Source: Candidatus Eiseniibacteriota bacterium (GTDB lineage: Bacteria > Eisenbacteria > RBG-16-71-46 > CAIMUX01 > VGJL01). From it: a DNA stretch of 64,000 nt. The translations under genes and the position numbers were made by a program. The stretch spans positions 64,001 through 128,000 of the forward strand of contig JBHGAY010000006.1 of the NCBI GenBank assembly GCA_041946735.1. The letters are read 5' to 3'. Positions 2,362-39,579 of the stretch are shown here, piece by piece. Within the stretch, counting starts at the first letter, position 1; the number at the start of each line of letters is the position of its first letter. The notes under the pieces were generated by a model. It made no database searches. It worked only from the letters and a program-made list of their open reading frames with translations, and was not told where the DNA came from.

Positions 2362-3278
2362 TGCACCTGAACTCCGAGCAGCTCGAGGATCCGCTCGAGC
2401 TCGGATTGGTCAGAGAAGAGGATCTCCAGACGTCCATGACCTTTCCGGCGCACCTGAAGCCGCACGCTCGTGCCCACGACGCGGCGGATCGCCTCCTCGA
2501 CCCTGCCGAGATGCGGATCGCGCGCTGTGGACTTCCGCGTCTTCGCCGACCCGGAGACGTCGGCCGTCGCATCGGTTTCTACAAGCTTCCGCTCGAGATC
2601 GCGTACCGACCACCGCTTGCGGAGCACACGCTCGGCCCACAGGCGCTGATCCGGCTCGCGCGCGAGGCCAAGCAGCGCGCGCGCGTGCCCGACGCTGAGC
2701 CTTCCCTCCCCGACATGCTCCTGCAGATCGGGCGGCAGCCGGAGGAGACGGATCAGGTTCGTGACCGTGGAACGCTCCTTGCCCACCTGCCGGGCAATCT
2801 CGTCGTGCGTGCGGCCGAACTCCTCTGCGAGCAACTGATAGGCGCGCGCTTCGTCGATCGGATTCAGATCCTCGCGCTGCAGATTCTCGACGAGCGCGAC
2901 TTCGAGGCTTTCCTTATCGGTTAGATCAACGATTACTATTGGAACTTCATTCAGCCCTGCCTCTTGGGCGGCTCGAAGCCTTCTCTCCCCCGCCACAAGC
3001 TCGAACCCCTCACCCGACCGGCGCACGAGCAGAGGCTCGAGCACGCCCCGCAGGCGGACGGAGGAGACCAGCTCCTCCATCTTGGCAGGGTCCACGCTCT
3101 TGCGCGGCTGCCAGGGATTCGGCCGGATCCTCTCGATGGCGACTCGCGTCTCTGCCGCCTGTCCTCCGGCTTCGTTCGTCGCGACGGCCCCGGCTCTCTG
3201 CATCGATCGGCCCGGCTCCGGGGATGCCTGACGGGGAATCAGTGCCTCGAGACCTCTACCGAGCGCCTTCCTGGTCAT
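2358..3278 (-). CDS. parB: ParB/Spo0J chromosome partitioning protein
   Basis: MTRKALGRGLEALI, NPWQPR, AGERRLRA, ENLQREDLNPIDEA, HTH. Confidence 0.97.
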   Translation of the reverse strand: MTRKALGRGLEALIPRQASPEPGRSMQRAGAVATNEAGGQAAETRVAIERIRPNPWQPRKSVDPAKMEELVSSVRLRGVLEPLLVRRSGEGFELVAGERRLRAAQEAGLNEVPIVIVDLTDKESLEVALVENLQREDLNPIDEARAYQLLAEEFGRTHDEIARQVGKERSTVTNLIRLLRLPPDLQEHVGEGRLSVGHARALLGLAREPDQRLWAERVLRKRWSVRDLERKLVETDATADVSGSAKTRKSTARDPHLGRVEEAIRRVVGTSVRLQVRRKGHGRLEILFSDQSELERILELLGVQVH

Positions 3279-4216: not shown

Positions 4217-4232
4217 GGTTTCACGTGAAACA
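4217..4232. promoter_or_regulatory. parS: parS site 1
   Basis: GGTTTCACGTGAAACA, 15/16 match to TGTTTCACGTGAAACA, upstream of parA. Confidence 0.92.
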
Positions 4233-4298: not shown

Positions 4299-4314
4299 CG
4301 TTTCACGTGGAACA
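4299..4314. promoter_or_regulatory. parS: parS site 2
   Basis: CGTTTCACGTGGAACA. Confidence 0.9.
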
Positions 4315-8368: not shown

Positions 8369-9847
8369 TTGTCAGGGGGCAGCGCGGTTCAGGATTTCGG
8401 ACAGAATTGGGAAGAAGTACTCGTCTCCCTCCGATCCAGCCTCGACAACGAACAACGCTTCGCGACCTGGTTTCGCCCTCTTATACTGAAGTCGCTCGAA
8501 GGGGAGCACCTGACGCTCGAGGTGCCCAATCCGTTCTTCATCGATTGGTTCGAGGAGCACAACCTTCCGATCCTCCAGCACGCTCTGCGGGAAGCCTGGG
8601 GCTGGGAGCCGAGAGTCTCCTTCGTCGTTCGCGAGAATTTCAAGGAGATCTTCCGACAGGAGGCGGAGAAGCAGCGGTGTTTCTCTCCGGTCTCGCAGCC
8701 GCAGCCGCAGCCTTCCCAGAAGGCTACGCTGGGCGAGGGGAATCTCAACCCGCGCTTCAGCTTCGAGAACTTCGTCGTCGGCCGGAGCAACGAGCTTGCC
8801 CACGCCGCATGCCAGGCGGTGGCCAAGGACCCGGGGCACGTCTACAACCCGCTTTTCGTCTACGGCGGCGCCGGTCTCGGGAAGACCCACCTGATGCACG
8901 CCATCGGCCTGGTCGTGCAGGCGGGCGATCACCGCAGGAAGGTCCAGTACGTTCCGGCAGAGACCTTCATGAACGACATGATCGAGGCGATCCGCGCAGG
9001 AACCACGCAGCAGTTCCGCGATCACTACAGGCGCCTCGACTGCCTGTTGATCGACGACATCCAGTTCCTCGCCGGACGCGGCAGAACCGAGGAGGAGTTC
9101 TTCCACACTTTCAACAGCCTCTACGACGCGAACAAGCAGGTGATCATCAGCTGCGACCGCCGGCCGAACGACCTGACGAGCCTTGAGGAGAGACTGACGT
9201 CGCGCTTTCAGTGCGGACTGGTCGCCGACATTCATCCGCCCGACCTCGAGACTCGCATGGCGATTCTCCGGCAAAAATCTTCCCGCGATGGGCTCGACAT
9301 TTCCGACCGGATCCTGTTCCTGCTGGCAGAAAACATTCGCGCGAACATCCGTGAGTTGGAGGGAGCGCTCATTCGCCTTTCCGCACTCTCGTCCTTGACG
9401 TCGAGTCCGGTGACCGAGGAATTGGCGCGAGACGCTCTCCGCGACTACCTGAAAGGAATCGGCTCCGGCCCGCCGGACATCGGCGCTATTCAGAGAATTG
9501 TGGCGAAATACTTTGAGGTGACCGTCGAATCGATGCGAGGCAAGCGCCGGACGAGCCAGGTGGCGCTCGCCCGGCAGACAGCGATGTATCTCGCGAAGCA
9601 GCGCACCGGCATGACCCTGGTCGAGATCGGCAAGCGGTTCGGCAACCGGGATCACAGCACGGTGATCTACGCCCTCACCCGGGTCGGCGACGAGATGAGC
9701 AAGAGCCAGGAGTTCCGCGACAAGATCGCGCGGATCGAAGAGGAACTGAATGGCCCTCTCTCTTCGTTGTCGGCCGGGAGAGCTCCCGCTACGGCTTCGT
9801 CGGCGTCGACCTTGTCGAGTTCTTCCGAAAAGTCGGGGGAAGCTTGA
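8369..9847 (+). CDS. dnaA: Chromosomal replication initiator DnaA
   Basis: YNPLFVYGGAGLGKTHL, LLIDDIQF, RELEGAL, RDHSTVIYA; TTG start chosen from GGAGG at 8359-8363. Confidence 0.98.
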   Translation: MSGGSAVQDFGQNWEEVLVSLRSSLDNEQRFATWFRPLILKSLEGEHLTLEVPNPFFIDWFEEHNLPILQHALREAWGWEPRVSFVVRENFKEIFRQEAEKQRCFSPVSQPQPQPSQKATLGEGNLNPRFSFENFVVGRSNELAHAACQAVAKDPGHVYNPLFVYGGAGLGKTHLMHAIGLVVQAGDHRRKVQYVPAETFMNDMIEAIRAGTTQQFRDHYRRLDCLLIDDIQFLAGRGRTEEEFFHTFNSLYDANKQVIISCDRRPNDLTSLEERLTSRFQCGLVADIHPPDLETRMAILRQKSSRDGLDISDRILFLLAENIRANIRELEGALIRLSALSSLTSSPVTEELARDALRDYLKGIGSGPPDIGAIQRIVAKYFEVTVESMRGKRRTSQVALARQTAMYLAKQRTGMTLVEIGKRFGNRDHSTVIYALTRVGDEMSKSQEFRDKIARIEEELNGPLSSLSAGRAPATASSASTLSSSSEKSGEA

Positions 9848-36998: not shown

Positions 36999-37173
36999 TC
37001 CCAACAACCCCCTGCCCCCCTTCGGCCCCCGCCCCGCCACGATCCATCCGATTCTCGGTCGGTGAGAAGCGCGGAGGCCCCGCGCATTGTGCCGGGAGCG
37101 GACCGTCCCGCGAAAGAAGAATCTCTCCTCCCGCGCTGCCGCGAGCGGGCCCGCGCGTGCTACCTTCGGCCGC

Positions 37174-38028
37174 GTGACGATCCGCATCTGCTCCCTGGCG
37201 AGCGGCAGCTCCGGCAACGCGACCCTGATCGCGAGCGAGACGACGGCGGTCCTGGTCGACTGCGGCCTCGCGGCGCGGCAGGTCGAAGCCCGCCTGGCCT
37301 CGCTCGGCGTCGATCCGTGCCGGCTCGACGGAATCCTCGTCACGCACGCGCACGCGGACCACTACCGCTCGGCCGGCACCATGCACCGGCGTTACCGGAT
37401 CCCGGTCCACGTCGACCCATCGACCGCCTGGGCGCTCGCCCTGCGGCCGGACCGGACCTCCTGGAGTCGCATCTCCGAGCCCCAGCCGATCCCCGATCGG
37501 ATCGGCGACCTGGAGATCCGCGCCCTCGACACCCGCCACGGGGACCCCCGGCACGACGGCAGGACGGTCGCCTACCGGATCGAGCACGCGGGATGGGCCG
37601 TCGCGGTCGTCACCGACCTGGGCCGCTTCGACGACCGGCTGATTGCCGCCCTCCGGGGAGTCGACGCGATCGTCCTCGAGGCGAACTACGACGAGGCGAT
37701 CGTGGGGCGCAAGCTTTCCGATCCCCGTTTCGCGCGCGACTGGCCCTACCTCCGGTGGGTGCAGAGCGACCGCGGCCACCTGTCGAACCGCCAATGCGCG
37801 GAGGCGCTGGCGGAGATCGTGCGGGACGAGCGGGCCCACGTCCTCCTCGGGCACGTGAGCGAGAACCATTTCGATCCGCGACGCGACAACAACGATCACC
37901 GGATCGCCTTCGATGCGGTCGCCCGCGAGCTTGCGCGCCGCCGGCTTCCGCTTCCCATCCTCCATCGGACCTATCGCGTGGGACGGGTGCCGGCGGGCTG
38001 TGGCGCGCCGATCGAGATCGGCGCCTGA
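37174..38028 (+). CDS. MBL-fold hydrolase (YycJ/PhnP-like)
   Basis: LASGSSGN, VDCG, THAHADH, TDLG, LEANYD, GHLSN. Confidence 0.9.
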   Translation: MTIRICSLASGSSGNATLIASETTAVLVDCGLAARQVEARLASLGVDPCRLDGILVTHAHADHYRSAGTMHRRYRIPVHVDPSTAWALALRPDRTSWSRISEPQPIPDRIGDLEIRALDTRHGDPRHDGRTVAYRIEHAGWAVAVVTDLGRFDDRLIAALRGVDAIVLEANYDEAIVGRKLSDPRFARDWPYLRWVQSDRGHLSNRQCAEALAEIVRDERAHVLLGHVSENHFDPRRDNNDHRIAFDAVARELARRRLPLPILHRTYRVGRVPAGCGAPIEIGA

Positions 38029-38030
38029 AC

Positions 38031-38630
38031 GTCCCGCCGGCTCGAGGCCGGCGCGCGATCCCTGGGCGGCGGCGGCCTGCCTGTCGAAGGGGAGTCGGCT
38101 GATCCGGGCGGCGGGCGCTGCGTCGGTCGAAGAGGGGCGGGCGATATCCGGGACCCGCTCTGCGGTCCGTCGAAGAGTCGCGGGTGAATCCCGGAGGTCG
38201 GTCTTGCGCGCGTCAAAGAGCTGCGGGTAGCCCCGGGAGCGGGACTTCGACGTACGGAAGCCCGACCTCCCGTCTTCGACTGCGGGTGTTCGACATGCTG
38301 GAGAGCCGCGCCGAGACTCCGGGTGTCATCGTCCCGCCGGTCGAACGCGAGCCGCCGATCCCTGGGGGCGACTCTTCGACGTGCGGAAAGCGCGCGGCCA
38401 GGGTGTGGGAACCGGTCTTTCGCGCGCGAAACGCGCTTGCCAGGGCCGGGAGGCCGCTCTTTCGACCGTCGAAGAGCGAGGGGCGAACCCTGGGAGTGGC
38501 TCTCTCGCGCGCGTGAGAGCGACCGGGGCGGATCGCCTGCGCGTCTTCGACGCGTCGAAGAGCGAGTCGGAGAGATCGGGAGCGGGAGTTCGACGTCCGG
38601 AGGAGCGGTTGCGCGGGTGGGGGGGCGGGG
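38031..38630. repeat. Degenerate tandem array, 14 units of 43 bp with palindromic core CTCTTCGACGCGTCGAAGAG
   Basis: Right half-site anchors at 38040, 38083, 38126, 38169, 38212, 38254, 38297, 38340, 38383, 38426, 38468, 38511, 38554, 38597. Confidence 0.8.
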
Positions 38631-38646
38631 GCGCGGCGCGCCTGCG

Positions 38647-38675
38647 TTGACCCGGCGGGGTTCACCGGGCATTCT
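38647..38675 (+). promoter_or_regulatory. Sigma70-like promoter right after the array
   Basis: TTGACC, 17 nt, CATTCT. Confidence 0.5.
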
Positions 38676-38699
38676 CAGTCCGTCTGAAGGAGGACTTCG

Positions 38700-38768
38700 A
38701 TGCCGCAGGGACCGCAGGAGGGCATGTCGCAAGCCGGGCGCGGCGTTCCGGTCGAGGCGCTCGCATGA
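38700..38768 (+). CDS. Possible 22-aa leader ORF
   Basis: AAGGAGG SD, MPQGPQEGMSQAGRGVPVEALA, ATGA overlap with next gene. Confidence 0.4.
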   Translation: MPQGPQEGMSQAGRGVPVEALA

Positions 38769-39415
38769 GCGAGAAGCCGGCGTACGACATCGCGAAAGCG
38801 CTCGCGTACCTGGATCCTTTGCAGCTCGGGCCTCCGGAGCTCGCGATCGAGAGGATCGACGACCCGGCCGTGCGCGTGCAGCCCGACGTGGGACGGACCG
38901 CGGCGGCGCTGCTCGACCTGCTCGTGCGCCTCCAGCGTCCCGAACGGATCCTCGAGATCGGCACCTGCCTGGGGTACGCCGCCTGCGCGCTCGGTCGCGC
39001 GGCCCGGGATCACGGCGGCCGCGTGCTCACCTACGAGATCGATCCCGCGCTGGCCGCCGCGGCGCAGCGCAACGTCGCGTCGGCGGGACTCGCCGGCGTG
39101 GTCGAGATCCGCAACGAGGACGCGCGCGCGGCGATCGAGCGCCTCGATCCCGCCGCCCCCTTCGGCCTGATCCTCCAGGACGGCGGCAAGGACGATTACC
39201 TCCCGATGCTCGAGCCCCTCCTCGCGCTGCTCCCTCCCGGCGGCCTGCTCGTCTCCGACGACGTCCTCTTCCCCGTGATGGACCTGCCGGAGCGGGCGCG
39301 GCCCTGGGCGCGGGCGATCGACGCCTACAACGTCCGTCTTCGCGATCTGCCCGGACTGCGCACCGTCTGGCTCCCGATCGGCGACGGCATCGCGATCAGC
39401 TACAAGGAGCGCTGA
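38765..39415 (+). CDS. O-methyltransferase (Methyltransf_3/TrmR-like)
   Basis: RILEIGTCLGYA, DGGKDDY, GGLLVSDDVLF, PIGDGI. Confidence 0.88.
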   Translation: MSEKPAYDIAKALAYLDPLQLGPPELAIERIDDPAVRVQPDVGRTAAALLDLLVRLQRPERILEIGTCLGYAACALGRAARDHGGRVLTYEIDPALAAAAQRNVASAGLAGVVEIRNEDARAAIERLDPAAPFGLILQDGGKDDYLPMLEPLLALLPPGGLLVSDDVLFPVMDLPERARPWARAIDAYNVRLRDLPGLRTVWLPIGDGIAISYKER

Positions 39416-39579
39416 GCCAGCCCGATCGACGTCCGCCCCTCCTCCGTTCGCTCTCCGCTTCGCCGCGTGCGCATTCCGGCCCGCCCTTCGTTCCCCTTCG
39501 TTGGAGGAATCGGGAAGCGGGCCGCTCAGAACCGGCGGCCGAGACGCAGCCGCGGACACGCGACGAAGGAGGACGACCG

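Follow-up and report, generated by a model that had tools for sequence, protein, structure and literature searches.

A decayed 43-bp tandem array is one of many 42–43-bp non-coding arrays in an Eisenbacteria genome

The genome of this Candidatus Eiseniibacteriota bacterium contains at least 20 non-coding tandem arrays with a unit of 42 or 43 bp, about 10 kb of DNA in total. An array within the window (the whole 64,000-nucleotide stretch that we analysed, positions 64001–128000 of contig C56) had been described in an initial annotation as a cryptic array; we found it to be no one-off but one decayed member of a genome-wide population. Its period has been held far better than its sequence, as that annotation had already noted. 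On balance we favour the view that the arrays form a minisatellite family specific to this lineage, in which the geometry of the DNA fixes the unit length, probably for protein docking.

A degenerate array in 43-bp register

We detected the period by autocorrelation of positions 38031–38630, in which identity at lag 43 was 0.499 compared with 0.306 in 500 dinucleotide-preserving shuffles of the same segment (z = 10.55). Multiples of 43 also gave peaks, at lag 86 (z = 6.8) and lag 129 (z = 5.2), and the maximum that the shuffles reached over all lags was z = 4.84. When aligned with MAFFT, 13 units fell into three groups, shifted by one base from one group to the next, so exactly two steps are of 42 bp and the remainder of 43 bp. 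This bears out the two 42-bp intervals counted in the initial annotation. In an unpenalised test, every one of the 12 windows along the array had its best local lag at 43, and the drift added up to −2 to −3. A 43-bp peak had been predicted for both autocorrelation and Tandem Repeats Finder, and only the first delivered it: over 37000–39500, Tandem Repeats Finder returned four rows, with periods of 8, 15, 8 and 11 and none of 43 bp, because the units are too diverged (neighbours are about half identical). Mean column identity across the aligned units was 61%. The reported resemblance between units 1 and 8 is present, with 73% agreement over 37 nt between 38030–38066 and 38330–38366. Codon-position GC signal is absent from the array (the spread between frames is merely 0.02–0.03), in agreement with its designation as non-coding.

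The array is not an assembly artefact, because parts of it are carried by independent samples. Contigs of a second sample (X2) match 38045–38239 with 1 difference and 38499–38817 with 0 differences, and a contig of a third (X4) matches 38573–38723. The sequencing run that spans the whole stretch is probably the source of the assembly and was not counted as independent.

Table 1 Positions in the window of the array, its palindromes and the flanking genes
Feature	Position	Strand	Evidence or reference
Upstream gene, metallo-beta-lactamase (MBL)-fold hydrolase	37087..38028	+	PF12706 3.7e-22, PF00753 1.2e-16
GC-rich hairpin (stem 9 bp, loop 2 nt) overlapping the 3′ end of the hydrolase gene, outside the repeat register	38005..38024	.	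genome 102005-102024
Degenerate tandem array, 13-14 head-to-tail units of 43 bp, two 42-bp steps	38016..38617	.	period, register, independent contigs, no coding signal
Variant core palindrome, 7-bp arms, no loop	38418..38431	.	palindrome scan
Variant core palindrome, one mismatch, unit 12	38500..38519	.	MAFFT row u12
P1, the best preserved of the core palindromes (arms of 9 bp, no loop)	38544..38561	.	genome 102544-102561
Downstream gene, O-methyltransferase	38765..39415	+	PF01596 5.4e-21

The array begins at the stop codon of the hydrolase gene, and matches to PF12706, PF00753 and PF01596 (Table 1) confirmed the identities first given to the two flanking genes. The TTGACC/CATTCT promoter that had been placed after the array does not satisfy sigma-70 criteria, by which we found 0 promoter-like sites in 37700–38900; a scan around the array found no terminator-like site. 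Just upstream of the O-methyltransferase gene, a strong ribosome-binding site of the AAGGAGG type precedes an open frame of 22 codons (38700–38768). The stop of this frame and the O-methyltransferase start overlap (ATGA, 38765–38768), and the frame looks like a translationally coupled leader peptide.

The initial annotation had placed the array about 30 kb from the origin region, which is a fair estimate given dnaA at 8744–9226. The origin-proximal set in the window also includes a ParB gene (2877–3146) and two near matches to the canonical parS consensus (1–2 mismatches of 16) at 4217–4232 and 4299–4314, 82 bp apart. The ParB gene, the parS-like sites and dnaA lie 29–35 kb from the array, the ParB gene at 35 kb, and the arrays are therefore not parS. 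A weaker second ParB_N-domain frame (521 aa) occurs at C28:15832–16035, away from the origin region and from the arrays.

Palindromic cores and decay of the window array

The quoted palindromes, P1 and the variant with 7-bp arms, are present where the initial annotation had placed them (Table 1), and the window array has a further palindrome at 38461–38473. The P1 dyad is centred on alignment columns 23/24, where 65.7% of cells pair compared with 38.5–44.6% when the partners are slid by 1–3 columns. The second block of the unit is a short palindrome about 18 bp from P1.

Some units had been said to change in sequence while keeping their symmetry. In a strict 43-bp register, pairing was higher within units than between them (by 1.26 pairs per unit, p = 0.002), but this apparent covariation stemmed from the two 1-bp slips and was lost once MAFFT had corrected them. 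Gap-corrected pairing in the MAFFT alignment was 65.7% compared with 64.4 ± 2.6% when the 3′ letters were exchanged at random among units, and 174 of 500 such shuffles reached the observed value. Double changes within the palindrome numbered 13, with 12.2 expected in the same alignment. Covariation within units is thus no better than chance, and the palindrome is a property of the consensus rather than of compensatory change.

The window array decays evenly across its columns (heterogeneity z = 0.81, p = 0.20), with a mean match to the consensus of 0.64 compared with 0.47 for random columns. It has lost about one third of its consensus letters yet has slipped by two bases over 13 steps. Indel-to-substitution ratios are typically 0.03–0.1, a general figure that does not come from this lineage; taken at that value, slips in the window array would be about ten times too few. 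The array looks like an old copy and carries no sign of current sequence-level selection, with nothing beyond phase preserved.

Phase is also kept elsewhere. Across 11 arrays the local best lag was exactly 43 in 71 of 78 windows, the others giving 42 (four windows), 44 (two) and 40 (one). Column variance was high in the sister arrays on contigs C6 (z = 5.8), C46 (z = 5.6) and C48 (z = 4.2), all with p ≤ 0.001, and the best-kept columns of C6 are dyad half-sites. Exactly half a period (21.5 bp) separates the two best dyad axes in each of the sister arrays C6, C19 and C48, and so all dyads would face one side of the helix. An IUPAC pattern for such paired cores had 6 matches in the genome, only 3 of which were known arrays. 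GATC is phased inside some arrays; overall it occurs at 0.58 times the genome rate and is thus not enriched.

A genome-wide population of 42–43-bp arrays

The scan for further arrays that the initial annotation had proposed was productive, and yielded the at least 20 loci reported above from an assembly of 4.89 Mb in 72 contigs (68% G+C, 94.78% complete). In a census of periods 30–70, with non-coding status assigned by a codon-position GC filter, we counted 50 non-coding-like loci, 22 of them at 42–44 bp (12 at 42 bp, 9 at 43 and 1 at 44) and together covering 10,105 bp. Two more degenerate arrays, C22 and C37, lie below the census threshold. Among lags not divisible by 3, lag 43 had 27 windows with more than 0.45 identity and lag 86 had 13, compared with 0–5 at other lags; the exception was lags 73 and 74 (3 and 9 windows), which correspond to a CRISPR array on contig C17. 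We rejected 43 bp as a unique period, since our first scans had skipped multiples of 3 and their inclusion gave as many non-coding arrays of 42 bp. The CRISPR array (L102, C17:76800–78700) has a 73–74-bp period and a repeat of about 36 nt, and the genome therefore has a CRISPR system outside the window.

Sister arrays vary in their state of preservation. Some are 85–90% homogeneous and break the assembly, and contigs end in near-homogeneous arrays in several cases (C19, C32, one end of C7, C43, C4 and C14), so their assembled lengths may not be the true ones. This homogeneity suggests recent in-register amplification. In C46, which Tandem Repeats Finder reported as 43 bp × 4.3 copies with 91% matches, the central units are most alike and the edge units most diverged.

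The arrays occupy convergent (C6, C19/C32), tandem (C56, C22, C29) and divergent (C37, C46) gene contexts, and the genes adjoining different arrays are mutually unrelated. Genes with the FlgD_ig (type-IX-style) end domain flank four of the arrays with annotated neighbours, and the 3′ ends of large secreted-protein genes of this kind come within a few hundred bases of five arrays (C6:46880, C22:59537, C43:870, C55:9945 and C5:115132); this proximity may be chance because the genome has at least 150 such domains. Separately, C7:18180–18720 and C16:14965–15500 share a flank of about 258 bp at 82% identity in opposite orientation, so at least this pair of 42/43-bp arrays is part of a larger repeated element.

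One unit length, several sequence families

We compared array profiles over all rotations and on both strands. The window array on C56 groups with C22, C37, C6, C43 and C55 (z 5–19), and C46 forms a second group with C48 (z 12–15). C19/C32, C29 and C31 were unrelated to the remaining arrays, and the 42-bp arrays add further families. At least five families without detectable mutual similarity thus share the 42–43-bp unit. A search for a motif shared genome-wide found that the most widespread 6-mer occurs in just 5 of 20 arrays.

Absence from sampled relatives

The arrays are lineage-specific, in that none was found in the relatives sampled, all of which lie outside the genus. The closest GTDB matches to the hydrolase, 55% identical, were in Candidatus Eisenbacteria assemblies. 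A scan of lags not divisible by 3 around nine orthologues of the hydrolase gene in other genera showed 0 arrays near lag 43, and 80 loci (295,086 bp) around metagenome orthologues of the hydrolase (best 56–57% identity) held none at non-multiple-of-3 lags near 43. We also sampled parts of two genomes of the same family, G004 (798,475 bp) and G005 (748,952 bp), and found no non-coding window at lag 42, 43, 84 or 86; one borderline window appeared at lag 126. At the density of the present genome (21 loci in 4.89 Mb), about 3.3 arrays would be expected in each sample and 0 were seen, so arrays are absent from G004 and G005 or much rarer there.

BLAST searches extended this result. Against 200 other genomes of the phylum, one of two homogeneous array families gave nothing and the other gave matches of at most 75 nt; of nine loci fetched for the latter, none was periodic at 42 or 43. 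Array DNA searched against 35 genomes of the order gave matches of at most 44 nt (E ≥ 2.7e-4), and 0 of 11 fetched loci were periodic at 42 or 43.

Explanations for a constant unit length

Selection on geometry, at about four helical turns, had been proposed in the initial annotation. The sharing of a 42–43-bp unit by at least 20 arrays that are unrelated in sequence makes a constraint on geometry the most economical explanation. Units would be gained and lost through slippage or unequal exchange, and a DNA-level constraint would keep their length at four turns of the helix. Such a length constraint is the best-supported part of our interpretation, and protein docking is its most likely, putative cause. 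As the source of the constraint, we would tentatively put first the docking of a dimeric DNA-binding or nucleoid-associated protein on dyad cores that lie on one face of the DNA. That the arrays have no function and their length is merely inherited is conceivable although unlikely, a ruler-like bias in the generation of repeats is rather improbable, and we give little credence to an RNA role. The spread of arrays over convergent, tandem and divergent contexts, and the finding of none in sampled relatives, argue against a conserved function.

Some of the same observations would fit a neutral or selfish minisatellite, in which one ancestral 42–43-bp unit was spread by illegitimate recombination and is now decaying, with rare indels preserving the period. 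We regard this as a possible but doubtful explanation. A single ancestor of all families would need no ruler; the window array decays evenly by column and lacks covariation; the arrays are lineage-specific, none having been found in sampled relatives; any intergenic context is occupied; and amplification appears to be continuing, to judge from the homogeneous arrays at contig ends. However, at least five families without detectable similarity have the same unit length, C6, C46 and C48 show strong position-specific conservation, and the phase has survived heavy substitution in 71 of 78 windows. Nor is a vehicle of spread visible, the flanks being unique.

A broader form of the docking idea is speculative, and we consider it improbable as a whole. 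Non-coding, chromatin-like arrays might exist in several phyla, with a unit of two, four or five turns (20–21, 42–43 or 52 bp) as their sole conserved property, and lineage-specific proteins might polymerise along one face of the DNA; the Eisenbacteria arrays would then be the four-turn form and their dyad cores the docking sites.

It is very unlikely that the array acts as transcribed hairpins, whether as a 3′ UTR stabiliser, as an RNA sponge or as a precursor of RNAs of about 43 nt. The array does lie between two same-strand genes with no terminator-like site found, its units contain GC-rich palindromes, and a study of bacterial repeats describes 52-nt repeats of Bacillus coagulans as transcribed (PMC8161180). 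However, its fold is no better than that of shuffles (z = −1.34 on the plus strand and −1.81 on the minus strand), there is no compensatory change, and G–T mismatches over all arrays number 80 compared with 60 for A–C and 271 of neither type. Sister arrays also sit in convergent and divergent contexts, and no Rfam family matched at its gathering score: permissive thresholds gave 3 matches, all far under the gathering scores and none inside the array core. The option of a processed structured-RNA array, raised in the initial annotation, thus finds no support in the fold, the mismatch counts or Rfam.

A REP/BIME-type element moved by a RAYT transposase, or a minisatellite inside a MITE, would be consistent with palindromic cores of 14–20 bp in intergenic DNA at many loci, but we consider it next to untenable, as the Y1 transposase PF01797 has 0 matches in this 94.78%-complete genome (6 of 14 control genomes were positive), the flanks of the window array match nothing else in the genome, and the units are arranged head to tail, not in alternating orientation; the REP-like option put forward earlier falls on the absent RAYT gene and this unit arrangement.

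We therefore retain a geometric constraint on unit length as the preferred reading for the population of arrays. The window array alone is an old, decaying copy, and any role it has is putative.

Comparison with known systems

Several known types of repeat can be set aside. The window array is not a CRISPR array: the entire 43-bp unit is weakly conserved and there is no spacer block. In type III toxin–antitoxin systems of the ToxI type, a short repeat array lies directly 5′ of an endoribonuclease toxin gene; here the gene downstream of the array encodes an O-methyltransferase, not a toxin. A ParB/SopB-type centromere was rejected because partition genes are not adjacent and there are many loci rather than one per replicon. 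REP/BIME elements, for which roles in mRNA stability and nucleoid-protein binding have been proposed, resemble the present arrays in being intergenic palindromic units that are sometimes clustered. They differ in that our arrays are accompanied by no RAYT gene, have head-to-tail units and a strict period, and show no noted excess of solo copies.

The BrickBuilt and MITE464/PgRS repeats of Porphyromonas gingivalis are likewise non-coding minisatellites found at many loci of an FCB-group bacterium, with units of 23 or 41 nt (PMC4596501). Those arrays reportedly ride inside a MITE with conserved ends, whereas the flanks of the window array are unique. Only C7 and C16 share flanks, and a MITE-borne minisatellite was rejected for the window array.

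Our literature search on 43-bp repeats found only plasmid centromeres of the sopC type and unrelated eukaryotic or other loci. In sopC of plasmid F, a 43-bp unit is directly repeated 12 times, and SopB binds the 16-bp inverted repeat that each unit contains (PMC3177203). The likeness lies in the 43-bp unit, its direct tandem repetition and the presence of one inverted repeat in each unit, and sopC is the clearest case of such an array serving as a phased docking platform for a dimeric protein. Unlike sopC, the window array adjoins a hydrolase and a methyltransferase gene without adjacent partition genes, and the genome has at least 20 loci of differing sequence rather than one centromere.

The closest match is to the bacterial tandem repeats described by Subirana and Messeguer (PMC8161180), a class in which size is constant and sequence variable. 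Their paper states that only sizes of 20–21 and 52 nt were found, the former equal to two helical turns. The authors leave the function of the repeats unknown and propose roles for a nucleoid protein or one that polymerises along DNA, or for small RNAs. Like the members of that class as the authors present it, our arrays are non-coding, comprise about 4–14 units, occur as several families per genome with a common unit length and differing sequence, wobble in length by one base and carry a motif and its reverse within one unit. They also appear species-specific and poorly conserved, a likeness judged here on genomes from outside the genus. The differences are that the unit is 42–43 bp rather than 20–21 or 52 nt, that the host belongs to Eisenbacteria rather than to Firmicutes and the other groups listed by the authors, and that no short motif is common to all arrays here (best 5 of 20). 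Since the authors state that only 20–21 and 52 nt were found, 42–43 bp is a new size. We conclude that the arrays are of the constant-size, variable-sequence class, for which neither this unit size, equal to four helical turns, nor this phylum had been reported.

Repeats of this class are published yet unexplained, with two sizes on record so far. A third size, of four helical turns and from an uncultured phylum, strengthens the case that geometry and not sequence is kept, as do the two dyads per unit, half a period apart, in three sister arrays. Together, the third size and the paired dyads give any search for a length-measuring protein or mechanism in these arrays something concrete to work on.
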